From Promethearchaeia archaeon (GTDB taxonomy: Archaea; Asgardarchaeota; Lokiarchaeia; Sigyniarchaeales; SOKP01): DNA of 14,337 nt. Of this stretch, positions 1,290 through 14,099 are shown piece after piece (positions within the stretch are counted from its first letter, which is position 1; each line of letters begins with the position of its first letter). The notes beneath the pieces are model-generated. The model saw nothing but the letters and a program-made list of their open reading frames with translations. It was not told the DNA's origin and did no database searches. The stretch covers positions 1 through 14,337 of the forward strand of contig JAHQWH010000222.1 of the NCBI GenBank assembly GCA_029856105.1. Direction: 5' to 3'. Made by a program: the position numbers and the translations under genes.

Positions 1290-2651
1290 ATGCCAAGCCA
1301 AAATGCTTATATATTGAAAAAAGCTGAACAGTTGACGTTTCAATCTAAAATTGCAATAAGAAATAAAAATTACAAATCAGCTATTTCGTCTTTATTAATA
1401 GCTAAAGATCTCTATACTAAATTAGGATTAACAGGAGAAATTGGGATTGTAATAAAAGAAATTGTTCGATTAAAGAATTTAGAAAAAGAGGAAAATATCT
1501 CTTTAACCGTATCTAAAGATAAATTTATTACTCCCAGCGATAGAGTCCCTTTTAAATCCAGTCTGAATAGAGATAAAGTAGCACAGTCTGAAGATAATCA
1601 GATATCGGAGATAAAGGGAAACGAAATTTTAGAGAGTGCTAGAGAATTAGCTCTAGAAGACAAATTTGATGAATCTGTGAAGCTTTATAACAAAGCGTAT
1701 AATATTTTCAAGCAACTTAGTTATGATTACGAATGTAAGCAAATATTGTGGCAAATAAATGAAATTAAAGAATACCAACGATGGGGCCAATTACGAAAAT
1801 CTAAAGGCATTCAAGTTCCCTTAAAAGATATCGTAGCGTTAGCTTCTGCTGAAAGAAGGCGACAGAAAATACAAAAAGGCTTAGGCGTAGGGAGAAAACC
1901 TATAGAAATTGCTGGAAGTAAATTAGAAAAACAAAAAGACCCGGTATTAACTCAACGTAAAAAATACAAATTATTTGAACAAATGAAAAAAAACGAGGAA
2001 ATGGAAAACGAGATAGCAAACCGATCAGTTTCAATGGTAACAGAACAACATGATCAAAGAAATCAAAAATGGAAAGAACATCAAAACAAATTAAAACTAC
2101 TTCGAGAAAAGAAAATGCAAGAAGAAGCTCTTACTGCAAAAGCACAGGATCTTTTAAGCAAAGGAAATCAAAGTCTTCAACATAAAGATTACAATGAGGC
2201 TAAATCTTTATATAAACAAGCGATTGAATTATTTACTCAGCTTGGTTGGCGTGATCAAATAACTCTTTTGCGAAATGAGTTATTAAATATAGATCGATAT
2301 AAAAAGGAGGAAGAATTGAAGTTAGAGCGAGCTACATTAAAAAAATTAGAAGAAGAAAGAGAATTTCAGAAAAAAGTTTCAAGTGTTTTAAGTGAGAAGC
2401 AAAGATATAAAGCAAAGCTACAGCAAAGACAACTTGCTCTTTCTCCTGAAATTAAAAACAAGTTAGAGAAAGCAGAGCTAATAAGAGCTAAAGCAGAAAG
2501 AGAAGAGAGCATGAACAAATTTTCCAGAGTTCTGGCTCGGTATCAGTATATTCTTCAATTATACGAATCAATTCCTAAAGATTCCATTGATTTATCTATC
2601 AAGGTCTCAGAAATAGAGCAAAAGATTTTAGAGTTAAAAGCGAAATTGTAA
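1290..2651 (+). CDS. Hypothetical helical-repeat (TPR/MIT-like) coiled-coil protein
   Basis: 453-aa ORF. It has four dispersed helical units (e.g. KNYKSAISSLLIAKDLYTKLG, DKFDESVKLYNKAYNIFKQLS, KDYNEAKSLYKQAIELFTQLGW) separated by E/K/Q-rich coiled-coil. Confidence 0.7.
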   Translation: MPSQNAYILKKAEQLTFQSKIAIRNKNYKSAISSLLIAKDLYTKLGLTGEIGIVIKEIVRLKNLEKEENISLTVSKDKFITPSDRVPFKSSLNRDKVAQSEDNQISEIKGNEILESARELALEDKFDESVKLYNKAYNIFKQLSYDYECKQILWQINEIKEYQRWGQLRKSKGIQVPLKDIVALASAERRRQKIQKGLGVGRKPIEIAGSKLEKQKDPVLTQRKKYKLFEQMKKNEEMENEIANRSVSMVTEQHDQRNQKWKEHQNKLKLLREKKMQEEALTAKAQDLLSKGNQSLQHKDYNEAKSLYKQAIELFTQLGWRDQITLLRNELLNIDRYKKEEELKLERATLKKLEEEREFQKKVSSVLSEKQRYKAKLQQRQLALSPEIKNKLEKAELIRAKAEREESMNKFSRVLARYQYILQLYESIPKDSIDLSIKVSEIEQKILELKAKL

Positions 2652-2703
2652 TATTTTAGGCTTCTTTTATATAACTAATTAATTAATTAAATTTTGTAAT
2701 TAC

Positions 2704-3744
2704 ATGAAGAATCCCTTTTTAGAATTTTCCCACGTCCATAATTCAAAAGAATTGTTAGACATAGCTTTTAAGAGAGCTATGAAAAGTAGCGCTCAAGTCT
2801 CAAAGAATGCGCCTATTCTTTTAAAGGCAAAAAAAAAGGAATTTACACGAATAAAAGTAGCAATTAAGGAATTAATAGAGAGAATTCTTACTATAATTAA
2901 GAAAGTGCCAATAATAGACGAGCTACCTGATTTTTACAAAGAGTTAGCGTCATTATTGGTCGATATTGACGAGTTAAAATTAACTCTTGGAAAACTTAAT
3001 GGAATTTTACCCGTTTTAAGCAAATTAGAAAGGGAACATTCAAAAAAATTAAGTCAGATTGAAACACCTAAAGACGCTGATCGAATCAGAAGAGCTGCTT
3101 TCGGAAGAGTTTCGTCGATAATTAGAAAACAAAATAAAAACCTCGAATATTTAAATAGCGTTAGAGGGAGATTAAAAGAAATCCCCTCGCTCGATTATAC
3201 TACGCATTGTATCGTAGTCGCGGGATATCCTAATGTGGGTAAAAGTAGTATTGTGAAAAATATTTCAACGAATAAAAAAGTTGAAATTCAAGAATACCCC
3301 TTCACAACAAAAAAATTATCGTTAGGCCATCTATTTATCGAGAAGAGATTTGATTCAATTAAATTACAAATTATGGATACGCCCGGAATATTGGACAGGT
3401 CAATGACAGAAAGAAACAACATTGAATTACAAGCAGTTTTAGCCCTAAAACTAATATCGGATTTAATTCTTTTCGTATTTGATCCAACTCCCGCATGTGG
3501 TTATTCTATTGATTCGCAATTGGACTTATTTTCCGAAGTTAAAAATAATTTTACAAAAGAGGGAAAAATCCAGATAGTAATTCTATTCAATAAAATGGAT
3601 TTAGCCAACTCTGATGAGATCGAATATCTTAAAGAAAAATTAAATATAAGAGACGAGGAGTACTTTTTAATTAACGCTTTAACCGGAGAAAATCTTGATG
3701 ATGTGGTAAAGTACTTAAAGGATAAATACGCTAACTCACAGTAA
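2704..3744 (+). CDS. nog1: NOG1-family (Obg-like) GTP-binding protein, ribosome biogenesis
   Basis: G1 GYPNVGKSS, G2 YPFTTK, G3 DTPGILDR, G4 NKMD, RNNIELQA motif, and an N-terminal helical domain with LPDFYKEL. Confidence 0.93.
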   Translation: MKNPFLEFSHVHNSKELLDIAFKRAMKSSAQVSKNAPILLKAKKKEFTRIKVAIKELIERILTIIKKVPIIDELPDFYKELASLLVDIDELKLTLGKLNGILPVLSKLEREHSKKLSQIETPKDADRIRRAAFGRVSSIIRKQNKNLEYLNSVRGRLKEIPSLDYTTHCIVVAGYPNVGKSSIVKNISTNKKVEIQEYPFTTKKLSLGHLFIEKRFDSIKLQIMDTPGILDRSMTERNNIELQAVLALKLISDLILFVFDPTPACGYSIDSQLDLFSEVKNNFTKEGKIQIVILFNKMDLANSDEIEYLKEKLNIRDEEYFLINALTGENLDDVVKYLKDKYANSQ

Positions 3745-4413: not shown

Positions 4414-5493
4414 ATGGCATGTAAATACATTTTAGGACTCGATATTGGTGGAGCGAATACTAAAGCGGTTCTTGTTAAATTTGAAAACTCAGAAATTTTT
4501 GAATCGTTTTCATTTATAGAATATTTTCCTTTCTGGGAAAAAAATTTAAACGACATTCCTAATATGCTTAAGAGAATCGTAGAAAACTTAATTATCAAGA
4601 ACAAGGTATCCCTAAAAGAAGTAGACTTTATCCCTATTACTATTACTGCCGAGCTTTCAGATGCGTTTCAAACTAAACGCGAAGGCATTTCTACAATATT
4701 AGATGCTTTAGAACAAGTCTTTGATGCCAAAAAAATGTTTTTTATTAACAATAATAACAAGTTTTTCAATTTCTCTCAAATAAAAGAAGATTATGCATCA
4801 ATTGCGGCAGCTAATTGGGTGTCAACCTCGTTATTTTTAGGTAAATTCGTTTCAAAATGTATTTTAATAGATGCGGGCTCTACTACTATTGATATAATCC
4901 CTATTATAAATTCTGTACCTGTTGCTAAGGGAAAAATCGATGTTGAGAGGTTAATGAATCACGAATTGATTTACACGGGTGGTTTAAGGGCAACGATACC
5001 ATCTATAACTCATATTGTTCCCTATAAAGGGAAGATGGCTCGAATCTCTTTCGAAAAGTTTGCTCTAGTTTCGGATGTTCATAGAATATTAAATAATATT
5101 TCTGACGAAGAATATATTAACGATACTGCAGATAATCGTTCAAAATCGTTAGAAAATTGCTACGCCCGATTAGCAAGGGTGATATGTATGGACTTAGAAA
5201 CTATTTCAAAAACAGAATTAGATACAATTGCGAAATATATTTATGATGAACAACTGGAGATAATTATAACAGAAATTCAAGAATTCATGAAAGATTTAAC
5301 TCTTAGAAAGCCTGAATTTAACAATGAGCCAAAATTTGTTATTACGGGATTATCTGCGGGATTTTTAATTAAAAAAGTTCTACAAAAATTAGGGTATAGG
5401 AATATTTTAAGCTATGAAGAAATCACTAATATTCCGGATCGTATTAGCTCTTCCGCTTTTGCTGTTGCGGGAGCATTTTATTTTCAATTGTAA
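4414..5493 (+). CDS. mfnF: MfnF-like methanofuran biosynthesis enzyme (H4MPT-linked C1 transfer protein, hydantoinase/oxoprolinase family)
   Basis: LGLDIGGANTKA, ITAELSDAF.TKREG, AAANW, DAGSTTIDIIPI, ELIYTGGLR, DTADNR..S.ENCYARLARVIC. Adjacent to an mfnE-like kinase. Confidence 0.88.
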   Translation: MACKYILGLDIGGANTKAVLVKFENSEIFESFSFIEYFPFWEKNLNDIPNMLKRIVENLIIKNKVSLKEVDFIPITITAELSDAFQTKREGISTILDALEQVFDAKKMFFINNNNKFFNFSQIKEDYASIAAANWVSTSLFLGKFVSKCILIDAGSTTIDIIPIINSVPVAKGKIDVERLMNHELIYTGGLRATIPSITHIVPYKGKMARISFEKFALVSDVHRILNNISDEEYINDTADNRSKSLENCYARLARVICMDLETISKTELDTIAKYIYDEQLEIIITEIQEFMKDLTLRKPEFNNEPKFVITGLSAGFLIKKVLQKLGYRNILSYEEITNIPDRISSSAFAVAGAFYFQL

Positions 5494-5508
5494 TATCTGG
5501 GGTCAATA

Positions 5509-6234
5509 ATGCTATATAATAACGCAGTTTTTAAAATAGGTGGAAAAATTTTAGAAGATTATAAAAACTTCGAATGTACAATATCTCAGCTTAAAAAATT
5601 GTATGAGGATAACACCCTTCAGAAAATAATTATAATCCCTGGGGGCGGATCGTACGCTAATTTTATTAGAAGTATTGACAAAAATTTAGTACTTGGGGAT
5701 GACCTTGCCCATTGGATGGCCATCTTTTCTATGAATTATAACGGTAAAGATTTGAATAGGTTATTTCCAGATTTGGAATGTGTCGATGATTTCAAGAGCA
5801 TACAAAGCGCTAAAAGAATTTTTTGCATCTTTTTGCCATATAATTATCTCAGGAAAAAAGACGAATTACCACATAACTGGGATGTTACTTCTGACTCAAT
5901 AGCAATCTATATTGCTAATAGATTGAATCTTAACGAGTGTTATTTAATTAAGGATATAGAGGGAATCTATAACAAAAATAATGAAGTAATTAAAGAAATC
6001 TCCACAATCCAATATAGAGAGTTAAAAAAAAGCGGGGGTTTGGCTGAAATCGGATTAAATCAAGATAAGTTAAAAAAATCAAAACCAATTGATTCCTATT
6101 TGTTAACATTAATAGATAAATACAAAATTAGCTGTATTTTATTAAACGGCACCTTACAAAATTCACGCATATTCAATTACTTTAAAAGTATTGAATTGGA
6201 AAACCAAGTTTACACTAAAATTAACTTTTCTTAA
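5509..6234 (+). CDS. mfnE: MfnE-like 5-(aminomethyl)-3-furanmethanol phosphate kinase (amino-acid kinase family)
   Basis: KIGG, IIPGGGSYANFIR, AHWMAI..M, LPHNWDVTSDSIA and IKDIEGIY motifs. Starts 15 nt after the mfnF stop. Confidence 0.85.
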   Translation: MLYNNAVFKIGGKILEDYKNFECTISQLKKLYEDNTLQKIIIIPGGGSYANFIRSIDKNLVLGDDLAHWMAIFSMNYNGKDLNRLFPDLECVDDFKSIQSAKRIFCIFLPYNYLRKKDELPHNWDVTSDSIAIYIANRLNLNECYLIKDIEGIYNKNNEVIKEISTIQYRELKKSGGLAEIGLNQDKLKKSKPIDSYLLTLIDKYKISCILLNGTLQNSRIFNYFKSIELENQVYTKINFS

Positions 6235-6365
6235 TTATATTTTAGCCTAAAATTATATAGTTTAAGAAGAAAATTGGATATAAATTAAAGTTTTAATTAA
6301 AATGAGAATAATTAAAATATATAATTAATAATTTTAAAAGTAAAAAATAGACGAGTGATGGGATA

Positions 6366-6866
6366 TTGGAACCAGAAGAAGTTAAGAAAAATGCAGATTT
6401 CTTGGTTAAAAATCTTGCTGGAAAAGAAGTTCAAGGATCGGCAACAGTAAATGTAAGATATAAAACATTAGTCGGATTTGCTAAAGTATATGGCATCACC
6501 GATCCAAAATATGTTGGACCCGAAGAGGAAGGAATAATTGCGTGTCACGCTTTTGCTAACAATTTCACAATCAAGGCACTATATAAATTGCTTTTAGGAA
6601 TGAAAGTGATACAAGATGGCATAGAACGACCTTTTATGTTAAATGTAGGCAAACTATTACATGGGGGTCAGAAATACGACTGGGAAGGATGCGTAGATGT
6701 GAAACCAGGAGATAAGCTTAAAATCTCTGCTAAATGGGGTAAAGTTTGGGTCGTAGAGAAAAACATGGTATTATTTGCTGAATTGTTCGTCTCCGTAAAA
6801 AATCAAAACAGCGAATTAGTTTGCAAACCTATGGTTACAGTTGCAGTGCGGCCGGGAGGCTACTAA
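6366..6866 (+). CDS. MaoC-N / HadA-like hotdog-fold dehydratase subunit (probably non-catalytic)
   Basis: FAKVYGITDPKY, LLHGGQKYDW and VKPGDKL match the MaoC_dehydrat_N pattern. It lacks the D-x-N-P-x-H motif. TTG start with GAGTGA upstream at 6353-6358. Confidence 0.75.
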   Translation: MEPEEVKKNADFLVKNLAGKEVQGSATVNVRYKTLVGFAKVYGITDPKYVGPEEEGIIACHAFANNFTIKALYKLLLGMKVIQDGIERPFMLNVGKLLHGGQKYDWEGCVDVKPGDKLKISAKWGKVWVVEKNMVLFAELFVSVKNQNSELVCKPMVTVAVRPGGY

Positions 6867-7607: not shown

Positions 7608-10517
7608 TTGAATATTCTGACATTAGACGAAAGAAAAGTTGAAGAATTGATTTTAAGCGGAGGCTATGAAAAAGCCGCTGAAGAACTTTTTGAAATTATT
7701 GAAAATCCAGAGAACTCAAATAAAGAACTACTATACGATAGTTTAACTTTATTAAATAAAATCTGTGATAAGTCACCAGCAATTTCTTTAAGAACTGTAA
7801 AAAACTTAGCAAATACAATAAGTGATCTTAACTCGTGGATTAGATTAGTTTCTTTAGAAATTCTTTATCAAATTTCGATGTATCGTCCAAACTTACTAAT
7901 TGATCTAATAAATAATATAAGGTCACGACTTTTTGATCAGGAACCCTCTATTAGGCGATTAACTGTAAAGATTATAGGAAATTTAATTCTTTCTTTACAC
8001 CTCGATAGAGAAAAGTTACGAGACATTATTGAAGAATTTACAGAGAAATTGATCGATAATGACTGGAAGGTTAAACTTCAGGTTATCAAAACTCTTAAGA
8101 GAATTATAAATCAAGACTACACTAAGATACGAGAATTAGAGCCGTTACTTTCTATCGTAATCGTTAATTTAAGGGACGAAGACGATGATGTTGCGAGATC
8201 ATCCGCGGAACTTTTGAAAATCCTTGGTACATATTTTCTATCTAAGGAAAATATTATGTATGTTTTATTAAACCTTCTTTACAACGAAAAAGCTCGCGTA
8301 AAAGAACTTATTATTTGGCTAATCGGAGAAATAGGAAAAGAAAAATCGTCAGAAATAATTCCAATAATACCAAAATTGATTAACCTTTTAAAAGAAAATA
8401 ACTACCGTATCCAACTTAGAGTAATCGATTCTTTAGTAAACATTGCGGAGAACAATTTTGATCAAATTTGGGCGAACTTAAAAACAGCTTTATATACGGC
8501 CGACTCCGAATTTAGAAATGTAATCATTAATGCGCTGTATCACTTATGTCAAGCTAATATCATGGAAGTTTTTAATTATATCTTTGAAGAATTTGAAAAT
8601 CCCTCTGAAAATGTCAGAGACGCGGTTGCTCTCGTTTTTAAGCGCCTCTATGAAGAGTATCAAGTAGAAATTGAGAACGAAATTGCAAAAATTTTATACC
8701 AACTAGAATCTAAATATTGGCGCCAAAGAAAAAAAACCATTATTCTTTTGAGGAATATAAGCTTCATATTAGAAAGTCAAAAAGTTGCAGTCTGGATTTT
8801 TATAGAATTGGAAAAAATTTTAAAAATTGAAAGCGATCCAGATGTAAACGAAGAAATTATTTATACGATAAAAACTACCAAAGCAAAATTTAAAGAAATT
8901 GAAAAAACAATTCAAAATGTTAACGAAGATTTAGAAATATTTCTTAAAAAAATTCACGAATTCCAAAAAATTCCGGCTCAATTTAGAGAAAAAATGAATT
9001 CATACATAAAAGAATTCAAATTTTACGAGACTGAAATAGAACTAGATAAGGTATACCGCACAATTTTAAAAAAAATAAAGAAATTTAACAAGAGACTAAA
9101 TAAATTCGAGTACAAGAGATTAGCGTTTAACTTAATAGAGGATTGGGAAGAAACTAAAGTTACCATTATTGATGAACTCAGTATTATAAAAGGATTCATT
9201 TCAGAGATTTTTGAAGAAAAGAAAGCAGAATTTACTATTAGCCTTAGATCAAAAGTTAAACTTTTAGAGGACCGTATTAAAGTTTTAAAAGTTCAATTTG
9301 ACTATGTGAAGGCGTATAAACTTCCCGAAAGTTTTGACGAGTTGATATTAGAGAATTTTCAAGATGACGAAATCGAAGAGAGATTCGAACAAATTACACA
9401 ACTTAGAAATTATTTATTCAAACTTGATGACGACATTCGTGAAATTTTAGTACGGAACGTAGAGTTTAACGAAGTTTTTAAGGGTTTGTTAAAAAACTGG
9501 GTTGCTGTTAAGATTGAACTTCAAGAATATTTGAGCGATTTAGATAGAAAAATCAAATCAATAAAAGATAGAATCGTAATCGAAATTCAACGCTCTAATG
9601 GCAACATTAAAGACCAAAAACTTAACATGTTATCTTCAATATTATTCCAAGGTCATATACAATCAGTAATCACGCAAGGAATTGAAGGTCTTAAACGATT
9701 TAACGATAATTTCGTTAATTTAGAATCAAAATTAGGTATGTTGCTAAAAAGGAGTGAATTCTCGGACGCAAGAAAGCTTATAGAAATGAATACTAACCAA
9801 ATTCAAAATTTTATCGAGGATTATGAAAATCAAATAGACAATATTATAGGAAAACTAACTGAAGATAACGATGTTTTTAACCTATATGTAAGACCTTCTA
9901 TTACAAAATTTGTATCTTTTAAGGAAATGCTTATCAATAAATTAAAAATCTTTACACAAAAGAGTACTGATAAACTTTTCTTAAATCAAATAAAATATTA
10001 TCTCGATGTCATGAATCCTATTAAATTGGAGAGTCTTTCCTCTTTTATAGATTTAGATATCGATCTGTTGAAAGAAAAACTTGTAAAGTTCGTTAACAAA
10101 AATAAGCTCAATGCGAGAATTATTAAGGACAGCCTTTATTCGCCAAGGATAGAAGATATTATTGAACCGAAGGATATTCTTTTCTTCAAGAGCATAAAGA
10201 CGATCGGAAATAAGATTTATTTTAATTTTAAATTGAACAATCCAACCAATCTATTGTTTTCGGAATTACAAATTTCTCTTAAAACTCCTGTGTACTTAAC
10301 CTTTTTGAGAAAAGAAAGCTTCCCTAAATATCTATATATTAACGAGTTAAAACCTGGAAATGTGTTTAAGTTTAATTATGTCTTAAGAATCGAACGAAAT
10401 ATTGAAAAAAACTTAACAGACCCAACAGTTGACGAAGTTAACCTTAATATATATTATAAAGACCCTTTCGACATTACACGTAGAATAACTAAGAAGATAG
10501 ATCTTTTACTTCCCTAA
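7608..10517 (+). CDS. Large HEAT-repeat solenoid protein with coiled-coil, PCI/winged-helix-like segment and C-terminal Ig-like beta-sandwich
   Basis: About 9-10 HEAT repeats in aa 1-430 (DLNSWIRLVSLEIL, DQEPSIRRLTVKII, DNDWKVKLQVIKTL, DEDDDVARSSAELL, ENPSENVRDAVALV). Helical/coiled-coil middle. IKLESLSSFIDLDIDLLKEKLVKFVNKNKLNARI at about aa 805-840. Beta-rich tail (FNFKLNNPT..FSELQISL, INELKPG, LNIYYKD). TTG start uncertain. Confidence 0.8.
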   Translation: MNILTLDERKVEELILSGGYEKAAEELFEIIENPENSNKELLYDSLTLLNKICDKSPAISLRTVKNLANTISDLNSWIRLVSLEILYQISMYRPNLLIDLINNIRSRLFDQEPSIRRLTVKIIGNLILSLHLDREKLRDIIEEFTEKLIDNDWKVKLQVIKTLKRIINQDYTKIRELEPLLSIVIVNLRDEDDDVARSSAELLKILGTYFLSKENIMYVLLNLLYNEKARVKELIIWLIGEIGKEKSSEIIPIIPKLINLLKENNYRIQLRVIDSLVNIAENNFDQIWANLKTALYTADSEFRNVIINALYHLCQANIMEVFNYIFEEFENPSENVRDAVALVFKRLYEEYQVEIENEIAKILYQLESKYWRQRKKTIILLRNISFILESQKVAVWIFIELEKILKIESDPDVNEEIIYTIKTTKAKFKEIEKTIQNVNEDLEIFLKKIHEFQKIPAQFREKMNSYIKEFKFYETEIELDKVYRTILKKIKKFNKRLNKFEYKRLAFNLIEDWEETKVTIIDELSIIKGFISEIFEEKKAEFTISLRSKVKLLEDRIKVLKVQFDYVKAYKLPESFDELILENFQDDEIEERFEQITQLRNYLFKLDDDIREILVRNVEFNEVFKGLLKNWVAVKIELQEYLSDLDRKIKSIKDRIVIEIQRSNGNIKDQKLNMLSSILFQGHIQSVITQGIEGLKRFNDNFVNLESKLGMLLKRSEFSDARKLIEMNTNQIQNFIEDYENQIDNIIGKLTEDNDVFNLYVRPSITKFVSFKEMLINKLKIFTQKSTDKLFLNQIKYYLDVMNPIKLESLSSFIDLDIDLLKEKLVKFVNKNKLNARIIKDSLYSPRIEDIIEPKDILFFKSIKTIGNKIYFNFKLNNPTNLLFSELQISLKTPVYLTFLRKESFPKYLYINELKPGNVFKFNYVLRIERNIEKNLTDPTVDEVNLNIYYKDPFDITRRITKKIDLLLP

Positions 10518-10563
10518 TAATTTATTAGTTTTTTCTATAGAAACTAAAAAAATCTACTTTTTA

Positions 10564-10629
10564 TATCGAAATTGTAAATAATTTATTACGAAAATATTAA
10601 TATAATCAGATAGTCTTTTAAATTCACAA
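10564..10629 (+). promoter_or_regulatory. selD copy 1 promoter: upstream TATCGAA, BRE-like CGAAAA, TATA-like TATTAATA, putative initiator region
   Basis: TATCGAA (10564-10570), 18 nt, CGA-A-AATATTAATA (10589-10602), 18 nt, AATTCACAA (10621-10629). The same motifs recur with identical spacing before copy 2. Confidence 0.65.
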
Positions 10630-10660
10630 CCAATAAGGTTTATAACATTTTTAAAAAACC

Positions 10661-10669
10661 GTGAGGTGA
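10661..10669 (+). promoter_or_regulatory. Shine-Dalgarno of selD copy 1
   Basis: GTGAGGTGA directly abuts ATG 10670 and is complementary to the archaeal 16S 3' end. The identical 9-mer precedes copy 2. Confidence 0.75.
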
Positions 10670-11707
10670 ATGCTACAAGAAGAAGAGAGTTATCGCTTGA
10701 CACTGCAGACTAAATTATTCGGATGAAACTGTAAACTTGATTCTAAAAAATTAGACGAATTGTTGGCTGGCGCTGGCTTGAAAGGAGATATCGAGGATTC
10801 TGCTGTAATTCCCGTACCAAACACCGATTTAGTACTGGTAAAAAACATTGACATCTTCACACCGATTATCGACGAACCAGATATAATGGGTGAAATCGCT
10901 GCTGCAAACGTAACTAACGATGTTTTCGCGTTAAACGTTCTGGAAATCTCAGGAATGCTAGTATTTCTTGGCTTAAAAAAAAATATGCCTATGCACATCG
11001 CAGAAGGAATATTGAAAGGTATTAGAAATTTCATGGAAAATAAAATACACTCGAAAGTACTTGGAGGACATACAATCTATTCAGAATGGCCTTTAATTGG
11101 CGGTGAAGCTTCAGGATTCGTCAATAAAAACAAACTGATTAAAAAGAACTACGTAGAAGAGGGTGATAAATTAATACTGACTAAACCCGTGGGAAACCAA
11201 GCAATCATGGCTGCATATCGCTTACAAAAAAACAGACCAGACCTCTTAGAAACTTACTCCAAAGCCAAAATCGATAAATCAATCGATTTGGCCATAGAAT
11301 TTATGACTATGCCGCTAAAAAACATTGTAAAGACTATTCATTCTTATCAAGACGTATCTTTCGTACATTCAATGACAGATGTTTCCGGTTTTGCACTCTC
11401 GGGGCATTTAAAGGAGATGCTTCAAGGCTCTAACCTTTCTGCTAATATTAAGAAGGTCCCGATATTTAAACTAGCAAAAGAACTGTCGTACGATTTTGGA
11501 TACAAATTCGATGAATGCGAAATGCCTGAGACCGCCGGGGGTATGCTCCTTTCTGTTGATCATAATTATGCTGAAGAATTCTCCAAGAGACTTGCTAATG
11601 AACATCAAGTGTCTAATTGGATTGTAGGAACAATCGATAACATTAATGAAACTCGACAGGTTCAAATTTCAAAAAATGTTGAACATATCGAAATAACTGA
11701 AATTTAA
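10670..11707 (+). CDS. selD: Selenide, water dikinase (selenophosphate synthetase), selenoprotein, copy 1; 345 aa, Sec19 (TGA 10724-10726)
   Basis: Manual translation from ATG 10670 gives MLQEEESYRLTLQTKLFG-U-NCKLDSKKLDELLAGAG..., in frame with the 10760 ORF. The TGA aligns with the catalytic Cys/Sec of the SelD G-C-x-C-K motif. Other motifs: DIFTPIIDEP, GGHTI, GDKLILTKP.G, TDVSGFALSGH, ETAGGML. A SECIS follows the stop. Confidence 0.95.
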
Positions 11708-11778
11708 CGATGTCAATGAAATAAGCTAAAACACTGTATGTGAGCGCTTATTGAGAGTTCCATCGCAAGACGGCATCG
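11708..11778 (+). promoter_or_regulatory. Eukaryote-type 3'UTR SECIS element of selD copy 1
   Basis: Helix I CGATG(TC)/(GG)CATCG. Core ATGA 11716-11719 with GA 11753-11754. Helix II AATAAGC/GCTTATT. Apical AAAA 11728-11731. Mini-helix CAC/GTG. Side hairpin CCATC-GCAA-GACGG. Confidence 0.92.
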
Positions 11779-11790
11779 AAAAGCTTTACT

Positions 11791-11808
11791 GTTTTTATTT
11801 TCATTTTA
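11791..11808 (+). terminator. T-rich tract after SECIS1, probable terminator of selD copy 1
   Basis: GTTTTTATTTTCATTTT starts about 12 nt after the SECIS. Archaeal intrinsic terminators are oligo-U tracts. Confidence 0.45.
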
Positions 11809-11912
11809 TAATTAATTTTCTAAATCTTTATTTTCACTTAGATTTTTTCGCTTCCATTCTATTAAGTACAATCTAAAAAGACGCCTTGAAAACCCTAAAG
11901 AATTTATATTTT

Positions 11913-11944
11913 GATTGAAAAACTCTTCAATCTTTTTTTGTTTT
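11913..11944 (+). terminator. Hairpin plus U-tract between the two selD copies
   Basis: GATTGAA-AAACTC-TTCAATC is a perfect 7-bp stem (11913-11932), followed by TTTTTTTGTTTT. Confidence 0.45.
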
Positions 11945-12067
11945 AACCGGAAAATAAGCATACAATAAAATTACTTAAGCAGTTTTTAGTTACCTTGAAA
12001 ACCAACTGTTTTATTAAAGTCCTTATAACATGGGTGTAATATTGTTTTAAAATTGATAATAAAAGCT

Positions 12068-12133
12068 TATCGAAGAAATAGATAGATAGAATCGACAATA
12101 TTAATAAATAAGAATGATTTTTTCAATTAACAA
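12068..12133 (+). promoter_or_regulatory. selD copy 2 promoter (homologous to the copy 1 promoter)
   Basis: TATCGAA (12068-12074), 18 nt, CGA-C-AATATTAATA (12093-12106), 18 nt, AATTAACAA (12125-12133). Confidence 0.65.
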
Positions 12134-12190
12134 TTCTTGATTCCTTTATTACATAATAGTTAGTTAATAAAATTTAAAATAAAATAAGAT

Positions 12191-12199
12191 GTGAGGTGA
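12191..12199 (+). promoter_or_regulatory. Shine-Dalgarno of selD copy 2
   Basis: GTGAGGTGA-AAA-ATG(12203). Confidence 0.8.
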
Positions 12200-12202
12200 A
12201 AA

Positions 12203-13231
12203 ATGGAGAAAAAGGAAGTATATAGACTTACTTCACAGGTTAAGATTCACGGATGAAGTTGTAAGCTTGGTTCAAATAGCCTAGAGAACTTACTAGCAAG
12301 AGCGGGATTACAAGGCGATATTGAAGACGCTGCGATCATCCCAGTCCCAAATAGTGATTTAGTAATGGTCAAAAATATTGATGTTTTTACACCTATTGTC
12401 GATGAACCAGAAATTATGGGTCAAATTGCTGCGTCTAATGTAACCAGTGATATATTTGCGATGAATGTTCCAGATATTTCTGGAATGTTAGTATTTTTAG
12501 GGATTAATACTAATACTCCAATGGAAGTAGCTGAGGGAATATTAAAAGGAATCAAATATTTTATGGAAGAAAAAATTAATTCGCAAGTAGTTGGAGGCCA
12601 TACTATATATAGCGAATGGCCAATGATAGGAGGAGAAGCTTCGGGTTTTGCACACAAAGATTCAATAATTCTTAAACAAGGAGTTAAAAAAGGAGATAAA
12701 TTGATTCTAACTAAACCAATTGGCCTACAAGGCACTATGGCCGCTTATAGGACTCTTAAAAATATGCCTGAAATGTTAGAACAATATTCAAAAAGTGAAC
12801 TACAAAAATCGATTGATTATGCTATAGAATTAATGATAACACCAAATCAGAACGTAGTGAAAACTATTCACTCTTATCAAGATTTTTCGTTCGTTCATGC
12901 ACTTACAGATGTTACGGGTTTTGGGCTAAGTGGGCATATAAAAGAAATGCTGCAGAATTCTACCTTATCTGCAATTATTGAAACCATTCCATCAATAAGA
13001 TTTTCAAAGGAACTTTCAGAAGAATTAGGATACGCTTTTGATGATTGTAGCTGTCATGAGACCGCTGGAGGGATGTTGATCGCTATAGATCCCAAAAAGG
13101 TTGAAGAATTTTCAAATACTCTTATTAGTAATAATGTAGAGAATTGGATTGTAGGTACAATTGATAACATTGAACCTGGCTTAGTTAGAGTTGCTGATAA
13201 CGTAGAAAATGTTGAGATTGTTAAGTATTAG
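12203..13231 (+). CDS. selD: Selenide, water dikinase (selenophosphate synthetase), selenoprotein, copy 2; 342 aa, Sec18 (TGA 12254-12256)
   Basis: Manual translation from ATG 12203 gives MEKKEVYRLTSQVKIHG-U-SCKLGSNSLENLLARAGLQGDIEDAAIIPVPNSDLVMVKNID..., in frame with the 12365 ORF. Canonical SDIFAM, GGHTI, LTKPIG and TDVTGFGLSGH. A SECIS follows the stop. Confidence 0.96.
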
Positions 13232-13302
13232 AGATGTCAATGAAATAAGCTAAAACACTATATGTGAGAGTTTATTGAGTTTCCACCCGTAAGGTGGCAT
13301 CT
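13232..13302 (+). promoter_or_regulatory. Eukaryote-type 3'UTR SECIS element of selD copy 2
   Basis: Helix I AGATG(TC)/(GG)CATCT. Core ATGA 13240-13243 with GA 13277-13278. Helix II AATAAGCT/AGTTTATT. Apical AAAA 13252-13255. Mini-helix CAC/GTG. Side hairpin CCACC-CGTAA-GGTGG. 27 consecutive nt (13233-13259) are identical to SECIS1 (11709-11735). Confidence 0.92.
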
Positions 13303-13310
13303 AAAATAAT

Positions 13311-14099
13311 TTATTCCTTAATTTCACCATTCAGATTTATTATAACATCCTTTATTTCTTTCAAAGCTTTTTCAGCCATTTCTTCTCCGTTTTCAACATT
13401 AAAACAGGTTATTGATACTTCTACTTCAACTGAAAGTCCGATCCTTGGGTGTGTTTTAATCCATAACTGAGGATACTTCTCTTCAAGTTTAGTAACATAA
13501 GGAGCTATCTGAGATTCACCAATGCCCATAAATATAAAACCCTTTTCTACGAATTTTCCCCGATTTTCTTTTAATATTGGTTTAATTACGTTAAGAAAAA
13601 TCGCTTTCATTTCAGCGGGAACACCGGGTAGTACGAAAATTGCCGTTTCACCTTCTTTAATTTTCACTCCAGGGGCGGTCCCTCTTATATTTGGTAATGG
13701 TGTCGATCCTTGAGGAAGATGTGCCATTTTTTCTCTTTCTTTGGTCATGCCTTCAAGTTTCAAAATTCCTCTTTCGTAAGCGCGTTCATATGCCTTCTTT
13801 ATAGAGTTATAAGCGTGTTCGTTTAGCTTTATTTCTCGATTTAAACCCTTTGCTATCCCCGCTAAAGTCATATCGTCAAATGTAGGACCAATCCCTCCCG
13901 AAGTAATTATCATATCTGGATTGCGTTTTAAAATAGTTTGTAGAGTATTTGAAATAACCTCAATACTATCTTCTATAGCAGTTATTCTTTTTATCCTATG
14001 CCCGTATTTCGTTATTCTTTTAGCCATCCAATTTGAATTAGTATCTTGGGTCTTTCCAATAAGGATTTCGTTTCCAATTACTAAAATTTCTACTTCCAT
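13311..14099 (-). CDS. CinA N-terminal-like / molybdopterin-binding domain protein (COG1058 pyrophosphatase family), without the PncC domain
   Basis: IGNEILIGKTQDTNSNW, SGGIGPTFDDMT, GTAPG, LPGVPAEMKAIF and GIGESQIAP motifs. Confidence 0.9.
   Translation of the reverse strand: MEVEILVIGNEILIGKTQDTNSNWMAKRITKYGHRIKRITAIEDSIEVISNTLQTILKRNPDMIITSGGIGPTFDDMTLAGIAKGLNREIKLNEHAYNSIKKAYERAYERGILKLEGMTKEREKMAHLPQGSTPLPNIRGTAPGVKIKEGETAIFVLPGVPAEMKAIFLNVIKPILKENRGKFVEKGFIFMGIGESQIAPYVTKLEEKYPQLWIKTHPRIGLSVEVEVSITCFNVENGEEMAEKALKEIKDVIINLNGEIKE

Follow-up and report, generated by a model that had tools for sequence, protein, structure and literature searches.

Why does an archaeal genome carry two selenocysteine (Sec)-containing genes for selenophosphate synthetase (selD) side by side, how old is the arrangement and do the two enzymes share one task? 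The question is raised by contig JAHQWH010000222.1 of a Promethearchaeia archaeon (assembly GCA_029856105.1). The analysed stretch, here called the window, is the whole 14,337-bp contig of a 3.66-Mb metagenome-assembled genome (MAG) that is 92% complete with an estimated contamination of 6%. Two open reading frames on its + strand, selD1 and selD2, reach full length once TGA is read as Sec. We found that the window contains a complete selD expression cassette that was duplicated in tandem long ago. Each cassette comprises a putative operator, a promoter with a B recognition element (BRE) and a TATA box, a 5' untranslated region (UTR) with a strong Shine-Dalgarno sequence, a Sec-containing coding sequence and a 3'UTR with a Sec insertion sequence (SECIS) element. 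It has been proposed that Asgard selD, with its SECIS, forms the bridge between archaeal and eukaryotic Sec decoding, and given this proposal the organisation, duplication and control of the genes are worth knowing. The two cassettes are composed of the following features.

10564..10605, + strand: selD1 promoter module, with a LysR-type transcriptional regulator (LTTR)-type dyad ATC-N9-AAT, then a BRE-like CGAAAA and a TATA-like TATTAATATAA; putative promoter/operator
10661..10669, + strand: Shine-Dalgarno-like GTGAGGTGA of selD1, read from the sequence; nearly invariant in 16 orthologues
10670..11707, + strand: selD1, 345 aa, Sec19 encoded by TGA 10724-10726; selenophosphate synthetase of the derived GUNCK type
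11708..11778, + strand: selD1 SECIS, 94.5 bits with the covariance model; covariation across 37 sequences
12068..12109, + strand: selD2 promoter module, with a perfect ATC-N9-GAT dyad, then CGACAA and TATTAATAAAT; exact match to the pattern described below
12191..12199, + strand: Shine-Dalgarno-like GTGAGGTGA of selD2, read from the sequence; nearly invariant in orthologues
12203..13231, + strand: selD2, 342 aa, Sec18 encoded by TGA 12254-12256; selenophosphate synthetase of the ancestral GUSCK type
13232..13302, + strand: selD2 SECIS, 84.2 bits with the covariance model; same architecture as the selD1 SECIS, side hairpin at 13283-13297

The promoter parts are named after the classical LTTR dyad ATC-N9-GAT, the BRE (CGAAAA) and the TATA box (the run that follows). 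By BLASTP the two proteins are 63% identical over 343 aa. Both pass the cut-off of 125 of the NCBIfam SelD equivalog model TIGR00476, selD1 with 179.8 bits and selD2 with 201.6 bits, and both fall just under the cut-off of 291 of the archaeal model NF010705 (258 and 282 bits). The first-pass annotation, made from the letters of the window, had described two same-strand selD genes about 60% identical, each with an in-frame TGA at the catalytic residue and with the same Shine-Dalgarno 9-mer in front. The gene positions proved correct, the TGA codons lie at residues 19 and 18, and the 9-mer is identical at the two sites listed.

Two similar genes in tandem on a metagenomic contig could be an artefact of a chimeric or strain-mixed assembly, or one copy could have arrived by horizontal transfer. 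The contamination estimate given above speaks for such an origin, and metagenome assemblies can yield 'apparent paralogues', as stated in a passage of PMC4989117. However, a 5353-bp metagenome contig, obtained independently in an unrelated study, runs across both genes and covers 10500-13400 with 14 differences. The order of the HEAT-repeat gene, selD1, selD2 and the convergent MoCF-domain gene was found on single contigs in 13 genomes of the genus, and the selD1-selD2 order recurred in every two-copy genome of the sister genus sequenced here, and the order HEAT-repeat gene, selD1, selD2 is seen in more than 20 MAGs over both genera. The copies are not strain variants because they are only 63% identical. 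As regards a foreign origin, both copies nest in the same Lokiarchaeia family clade with a support of 99-100 and broadly matching internal topologies, which speaks against transfer. We therefore regard an artefactual or foreign origin as effectively refuted already and its remaining probability as minimal; the contiguity, synteny and phylogeny that the first-pass annotation had named as checks came out in favour of its proposal. The gene that marks the upstream border of this conserved order is given here.

7608..10517, + strand: HEAT-repeat protein gene (Pfam HEAT), 969 aa; conserved upstream neighbour of the selD locus

The HEAT-repeat gene also lies directly upstream of selD in other Lokiarchaeia families, with 24-27% identity, and the linkage is conserved.

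To date the duplication we relied on trees and substitution rates. In a tree of 50 sequences the GUNCK (selD1) type formed a single clade (100/100) on a stem of 0.31, and the GUSCK (selD2) type was weakly paraphyletic around it, its monophyly not being rejected (lnL difference 0.30, p-AU 0.44). In the family-level tree the GUNCK clade (99 SH-aLRT) was placed inside the family, here f1, after the earliest genus branches off. Across the trees the stem branch of selD1 measured 0.27-0.31. The GUSCK motif of selD2 is the motif of the single-copy genes in other genera and families. We concluded that the GUNCK type has a single origin, which lies within one family on an accelerated stem, and that this type was later at least as constrained as selD2, which keeps the ancestral motif. 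Pairwise dN/dS values, calculated for orthologues with unsaturated dS, were 0.04-0.16 for selD1 and 0.08-0.17 for selD2, and both copies are thus under purifying selection. Of the two genes selD1 evolves slower, the median selD2/selD1 dN ratio being 1.47, and dS between the paralogues is saturated. The clade support, the low dN/dS values and the saturated dS together bear out the earlier proposal that the whole cassette was duplicated in tandem long ago and kept by selection.

A class-wide search revealed two copies only in many genomes of two genera of f1, the genus of the window (g1) and its sister genus (g22). A single copy was found in nine other matching f1 genera, eight of them sequenced, and in all other families searched, with GUSCK in every sequenced gene. 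In single-copy genomes the HEAT-repeat gene is followed directly by selD2. Within g1 there are eight genomes with selD2 only, and in six of these the HEAT-repeat gene lies <600 bp from selD2. As the selD2-only genomes fall in at least three places on the tree, selD1 has been lost repeatedly. selD2 was present, at least in part, in every genome with a selD match except one (G011), in which the sole match is a selD1 fragment cut by the contig end. From this distribution we infer that selD2 serves as the core enzyme, with selD1 as an accessory isoenzyme that can be dispensed with.

The slot between the HEAT-repeat gene and selD2 was not always empty in the absence of selD1. In one such genome (locus L056, G007:C55, 1229-4447) it holds a split YedE-like putative selenium transporter and a TusA/YedF-like gene, together with a DsrE-domain protein and a second TusA-like open reading frame ending in G-TGA, possibly a C-terminal Sec. 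This yedE/yedF-like cassette is preceded by a weak form of the promoter box described below. In three other genomes a gene for a double-cubane-cluster anaerobic reductase (NF040772, 466 bits) is located between selD1 and selD2, at the positions below. Upstream of it, the exact box pattern was present in G004 and a weak match to a hidden Markov model (HMM) of the box was obtained in G008 (E 0.1).

L039 (G004), 4885-6174: double-cubane reductase gene
L040 (G008), 5439-6731: double-cubane reductase gene
L046 (G003), 4991-6283: double-cubane reductase gene

To judge whether both copies are functional we compared their motifs. The Sec loop reads F-G-U-N-C-K in selD1 and H-G-U-S-C-K in selD2. The G-U-x-C-K loop motifs are kept in all orthologues, and UGA occupies the catalytic position both in the window and in every intact orthologue. 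The blocks IEDSAVIP, NIDIFTPIIDEP, ANVTNDVFA and TDVSGF align to the matching blocks of human SPS1 (3fd5). Fixed differences between selD1 and selD2 were detected at only 11 sites, none of them on Sec, Cys, Lys or Asp. Three sites are derived in selD1 relative to selD2 and the outgroups, namely Asn for Ser after Sec, Leu216 for Asn and Ser239 for Thr; residue 216 is Leu in selD1 and Asn in all selD2 and outgroup copies. The individual ATP- and metal-binding residues in the Asp/Asn blocks are presumably those of known SelD structures.

The first-pass annotation had offered two explanations for the retention of both genes. One was a parallel to the animal pair SPS1/SPS2 (SEPHS1/SEPHS2), in which the SPS1-type protein replaces Sec/Cys and loses selenophosphate synthesis (Mariotti et al. 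2015, as cited in PMC11227280). The two systems are alike in that a duplicated synthetase gene was long retained and one copy sits on a faster stem branch. Unlike SPS1/SPS2, both Lokiarchaeia copies keep Sec and the catalytic motifs, including the adjacent Cys and Lys and the Asp/Asn motifs, and in neither has Sec/Cys been replaced by Thr, Arg, Gly or a similar residue. As both copies keep Sec, an SPS1-type paralogue is ruled out and the parallel in its strict form fails.

A looser version, SPS1-like in spirit, would be that selD1 was neofunctionalised for selenium salvage or trafficking, sulfur chemistry or regulation, and that selD2 supplies Sec synthesis. The selD1 stem, long and followed by tight constraint, would fit such a change, and so would the 11 fixed differences with the Asn for Ser after Sec and the Leu in place of an Asn that is invariant in selD2 and the outgroups. 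The same can be said of the dispensability of selD1 against the retention of selD2, and of the one genome in which the selD1 slot is occupied by the yedE/yedF-like cassette. However, selD1 keeps Sec together with the Cys and Lys beside it and every Asp/Asn motif, shows none of the Sec/Cys loss by which the SPS1 type is defined, and shares its SECIS type and its promoter box with selD2. We consider neofunctionalisation of selD1 unlikely, though it is the strongest competitor of the reading we prefer.

The second explanation was a division of labour between selenium sinks, with one copy serving Sec-tRNA and the other 2-selenouridine or a Se-cofactor; a selenometabolite could be added as a further sink. 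In favour of it, Sec-less sinks are found in other prokaryotes (summarised in PMC5322559), and the selD locus is a variable selenium island that in relatives contains double-cubane reductase or yedE/yedF genes. In the genome itself, genes for SepSecS, a PSTK-like and an EFSec-like protein were present, and no SelU, YqeB or SenB-type protein was found above noise at 92% completeness (best SelU match E 0.008, 16 bits), which leaves SepSecS as the only recognised consumer found. Sec synthesis is therefore the only recognised selenophosphate sink, and the proposed division of labour is not supported; we hold it to be very improbable. Since both copies keep Sec and no other sink is recognised, we read both proteins as active selenophosphate synthetases that would feed Sec-tRNA synthesis. 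The second copy may add dosage, kinetics or a heterodimer.

The search for tRNA-Sec gave no hit with aragorn and only sub-threshold matches with the Rfam tRNA-Sec model. The most plausible candidate, 117 nt in length with 28 bits, is located at G000:C16:26707-26823 on the - strand; SepSecS is its direct neighbour, and the EFSec-like gene lies about 5 kb away. From its length it may be a tRNA-Sec with an intron, of the kind described for Lokiarchaeota.

In two selD1 genes of the sister genus a 31-nt insert was observed right after the Sec codon (UGA A^ACUGU), at 1511-1541 of L150 (G112:C16) and at 1482-1512 of L151 (G110:C136). The two inserts are unrelated in sequence. Each shifts the frame, and the remaining 328 codons are intact and conserved. 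On folding, an exon-exon helix was obtained without a clean bulge-helix-bulge motif. The inserts could be a small archaeal mRNA intron or two independent disabling insertions.

The duplicated unit includes the 3'UTR. The elements after selD1 and selD2, about 71 nt each, are 84% identical and begin 1 nt past the stop codons, at 11708 and 13232. For selD1, minimum free energy folding of single 3'UTRs gave no convincing result (z -0.4), and the structure was therefore taken from comparative data, an alignment of 37 orthologous 3'UTRs from which the covariance model was also built. In the 5' to 3' direction the architecture is helix I, AUGA, helix II, an A-run, an apical ministem, GA, a GNRA-capped side hairpin and the return to helix I. 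For selD1, helix I pairs 11708-12 with 11774-78 and helix II (7 bp) pairs 11720-26 with 11746-52; the core consists of AUGA at 11716-19 and GA at 11753-54, the AAAA run is at 11728-31, the apical CAC/GUG ministem pairs 11732-34 with 11740-42, and the side hairpin spans 11760-73. In the alignment 92.7% of the cells of the proposed structure were paired, and 12 of the 20 pairs were changed on both sides, five of them in helix II; when the partners were slid by 1-3 columns as a control, 29-46% were paired. The T, G and A of the core are invariant, and the side hairpin, situated between the GA core and helix I, is itself supported by covariation.

Searched against the 3.66-Mb genome, the covariance model matched exactly twice, after each selD stop, with the scores listed above. 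Weaker matches were obtained after selD in other Lokiarchaeia families, and the architecture is therefore old and selD-specific. No Rfam family matched at either element at E up to 10; Rfam may hold no model of the Asgard element. Both elements are type II eukaryote-like SECIS elements of the SPS type with an extra side hairpin, and a role in Sec insertion is predicted for them. The first-pass annotation had assigned each copy its own 71-nt SECIS, and this assignment stands, with the qualification that part of the likeness is probably recent.

This qualification follows from a comparison with sister genomes. The first 38 nt after the selD2 stop (13232-13269), which cover helix I, the AUGA core, helix II, the A-run and the ministem, agree at 38/38 positions with the selD1 SECIS in G005 and G017, two sister genomes, and the next 49 nt of the selD2 3'UTR are identical to the selD2 3'UTR of G005 (49/49). 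In the selD2 SECIS of G005 and G017 the 5' half differs: its core is UUUGAU, it has one more A and its loop is longer. The mosaic suggests a short, recent gene-conversion tract from selD1 to selD2, which would best explain, in part, the strong likeness of the two SECIS elements in the window.

A distance of 9 nt separates the 3' end of the selD2 SECIS (13302) from the stop codon of the MoCF-domain gene, which is convergent and lies at 13311-14099 on the - strand, and both transcripts must therefore end almost head-on.

At the other end of the cassette, the homologous promoter that had been noted before both genes was recovered as a 31-nt pattern, TATCGA-N7-RATAR-N7-CGAMAA, at 10564-10594 and 12068-12098, with the same spacing in both; only two more matches exist in the genome. 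The upstream regions of selD1 orthologues conserve TTATCGAAA-N-ATAA-N-ACGAAAATATTAATATAA, and the selD1 box is conserved in them 51-77 nt upstream of the ATG. In 41 genomes the exact pattern matched 49 times and a reversed control not once, and by our own estimate from base composition about 0.01 chance matches are expected per genome. We fetched the context of 30 of the 49 matches. All 30 lie upstream of selD1, of selD2, of the double-cubane (DCCP) reductase between them, or of dsrE-tusA beside a gene for a LysR_Se-like regulator.

In Methanococcus, the regulator HrsM/LysR_Se has been linked to selenium by experiment (Sun & Klein 2004; Hohn 2011; Lin et al. 2015; PMC5322559). In our genome the LysR_Se-like regulator is split over two contig ends, G000:C58 4689-6801 (L100) and C209:4-756. 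The C58 part contains the LysR N-terminus, whose best NCBIfam match is NF040786 ('selenium metabolism-associated LysR'), a 296-aa membrane protein without a family match, a DsrE-like gene and a TusA-like gene with YedF as best match. The regulator gene is divergent from the membrane protein gene, and boxes are found before the latter and before dsrE. When an HMM derived from the selD1 boxes was run over the whole genome, selD1 came first (a self match), followed by the two C58 sites and then by selD2 (E 4.7). With an HMM made only from the LysR_Se divergent promoters of relatives, three significant matches were obtained in the genome, the two C58 sites and the selD1 box (26.5 bits, E 2e-5). 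Over the genus, 25 of 29 LysR_Se-like loci have a box that the selD1-derived HMM detects in their divergent promoter, at a fixed position.

The system thus resembles HrsM/LysR_Se in that a LysR gene with its best match in the selenium subfamily stands beside yedF-like genes, and in that an ATC-N9-GAT-type dyad occurs both in the divergent promoter and before selD. The known targets of HrsM in Methanococcus are Cys-isoform hydrogenase operons, and a control of Asgard selD is predicted here from sequence. The shared box probably marks a selenium regulon, in which an HrsM-like LysR protein would control both selD promoters. More tentatively, and with somewhat less than an even expectation that it holds in full, we propose a compact regulon in which both selD genes would be under LysR_Se via the 31-nt module, together with the split yedF-like dsrE-tusA operon and, in some relatives, the double-cubane reductase; the region after the HEAT-repeat gene would be a variable 'selenium island' in which selD1, the reductase or a yedE/yedF cassette is swapped before a constant selD2. 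If true, the regulon would represent the first selenium-responsive cis-regulatory circuit to be defined in Asgard archaea and would imply feedback control of selenophosphate synthesis. The 31-nt box offers a direct experimental handle on selenium sensing in these organisms.

A regulatory subfunctionalisation, with the box controlling selD1 only, was suggested by the HMM scores within the genus. It was dropped on two grounds: in other genomes of the genus the region before selD2 matches the exact pattern (6 of the 30 fetched sites), and in the sister genus the selD2 boxes score equal to or above the selD1 boxes.

Contigs from RNA-labelled libraries of a close relative cover parts of both genes but not the spacer, which hints weakly at separate transcripts; the uncovered spacer (11338-12158) was not used as evidence. 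The contigs begin at 10638/10640 and at 12159/12160. Their spacing to the TATA-like boxes is inconsistent and one library is probably DNA, so we treat these starts as a weak hint.

Taken together, we consider it probable that the window holds an ancient tandem duplication of the selD cassette that encodes two active isoenzymes for Sec synthesis, both supplying selenophosphate for Sec-tRNA, where selD2 would be the core enzyme, selD1 a dispensable accessory one and the shared box the means of their co-regulation. Several results weigh against parts of this reading. The long selD1 stem and the fixed S-to-N beside Sec and N-to-L at residue 216 leave room for an altered function. The family-level tree fits an origin of the duplication in g1+g22 and an earlier origin with losses alike. 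The selD2 box of the window scores poorly, with E 4.7 in the selD1-derived HMM and no match in the LysR-derived one. The full-length LysR-like relatives score 204-231 bits, under the curated NF040786 cut-off of 250 bits. Binding of the box by LysR_Se is predicted from their co-occurrence, and the box overlaps what may be no more than a common strong promoter. Finally, the RNA contigs are assembled and come from a relative, and neither the strand nor the transcript starts nor the level of expression can be read from them.

Two Sec-containing selD genes in Lokiarchaeia, as well as type II selD SECIS elements, are already known. Huang, Xiao & Zhang (2024, ISME J; PMC11227280) reported 51 Loki-/Thorarchaeia organisms with at least two selD genes, a situation rare in prokaryotes, found a type II eSECIS-like element with most Asgard selD, and speculated on a more active role or a new function. 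The multi-copy Sec-containing selD genes of that study are the same phenomenon as the pair described here. The first-pass annotation had left it open whether the tandem arrangement had been described. Multi-copy selD is published, and in that respect the pair is not new; the word 'tandem' is absent from the main text of Huang 2024, which leaves the tandem arrangement itself unmentioned there, and a search of the supplement for selD/tandem gave no match. Relative to that main text the GUNCK/GUSCK split, the timing of the duplication, the dN/dS values, the repeated copy loss, the SECIS conversion and the shared box are added here. In sum, our addition consists of the duplication history, the selection analysis, the conversion tract and the 31-nt box that links both selD promoters to an HrsM-like locus.

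A 'lokiSECIS' was described by Mariotti et al. (2016, MBE; PMC4989117) in the 3'UTR of SPS as specific to this gene and as type II-like, except that its main stem is shorter and an apical stem is added, and the elements of the window fit the lokiSECIS passage of that paper. The same passage makes no mention of a GNRA-capped side hairpin, which is seen here. In its account SPS is single copy, and only a fragment of it was found in Loki itself, in contrast to the two intact copies here.

When the window was scanned with Rfam at E up to 10, two chance-level matches were all that came back, a CRISPR-DR38-like one at 1337-1368 and a NiCo-like one at 2209-2290. The region 1290-3744 encodes a protein with a weak MIT-domain match and a NOG1-type GTPase, eukaryote-signature-like neighbours that fit the Asgard origin of the contig.

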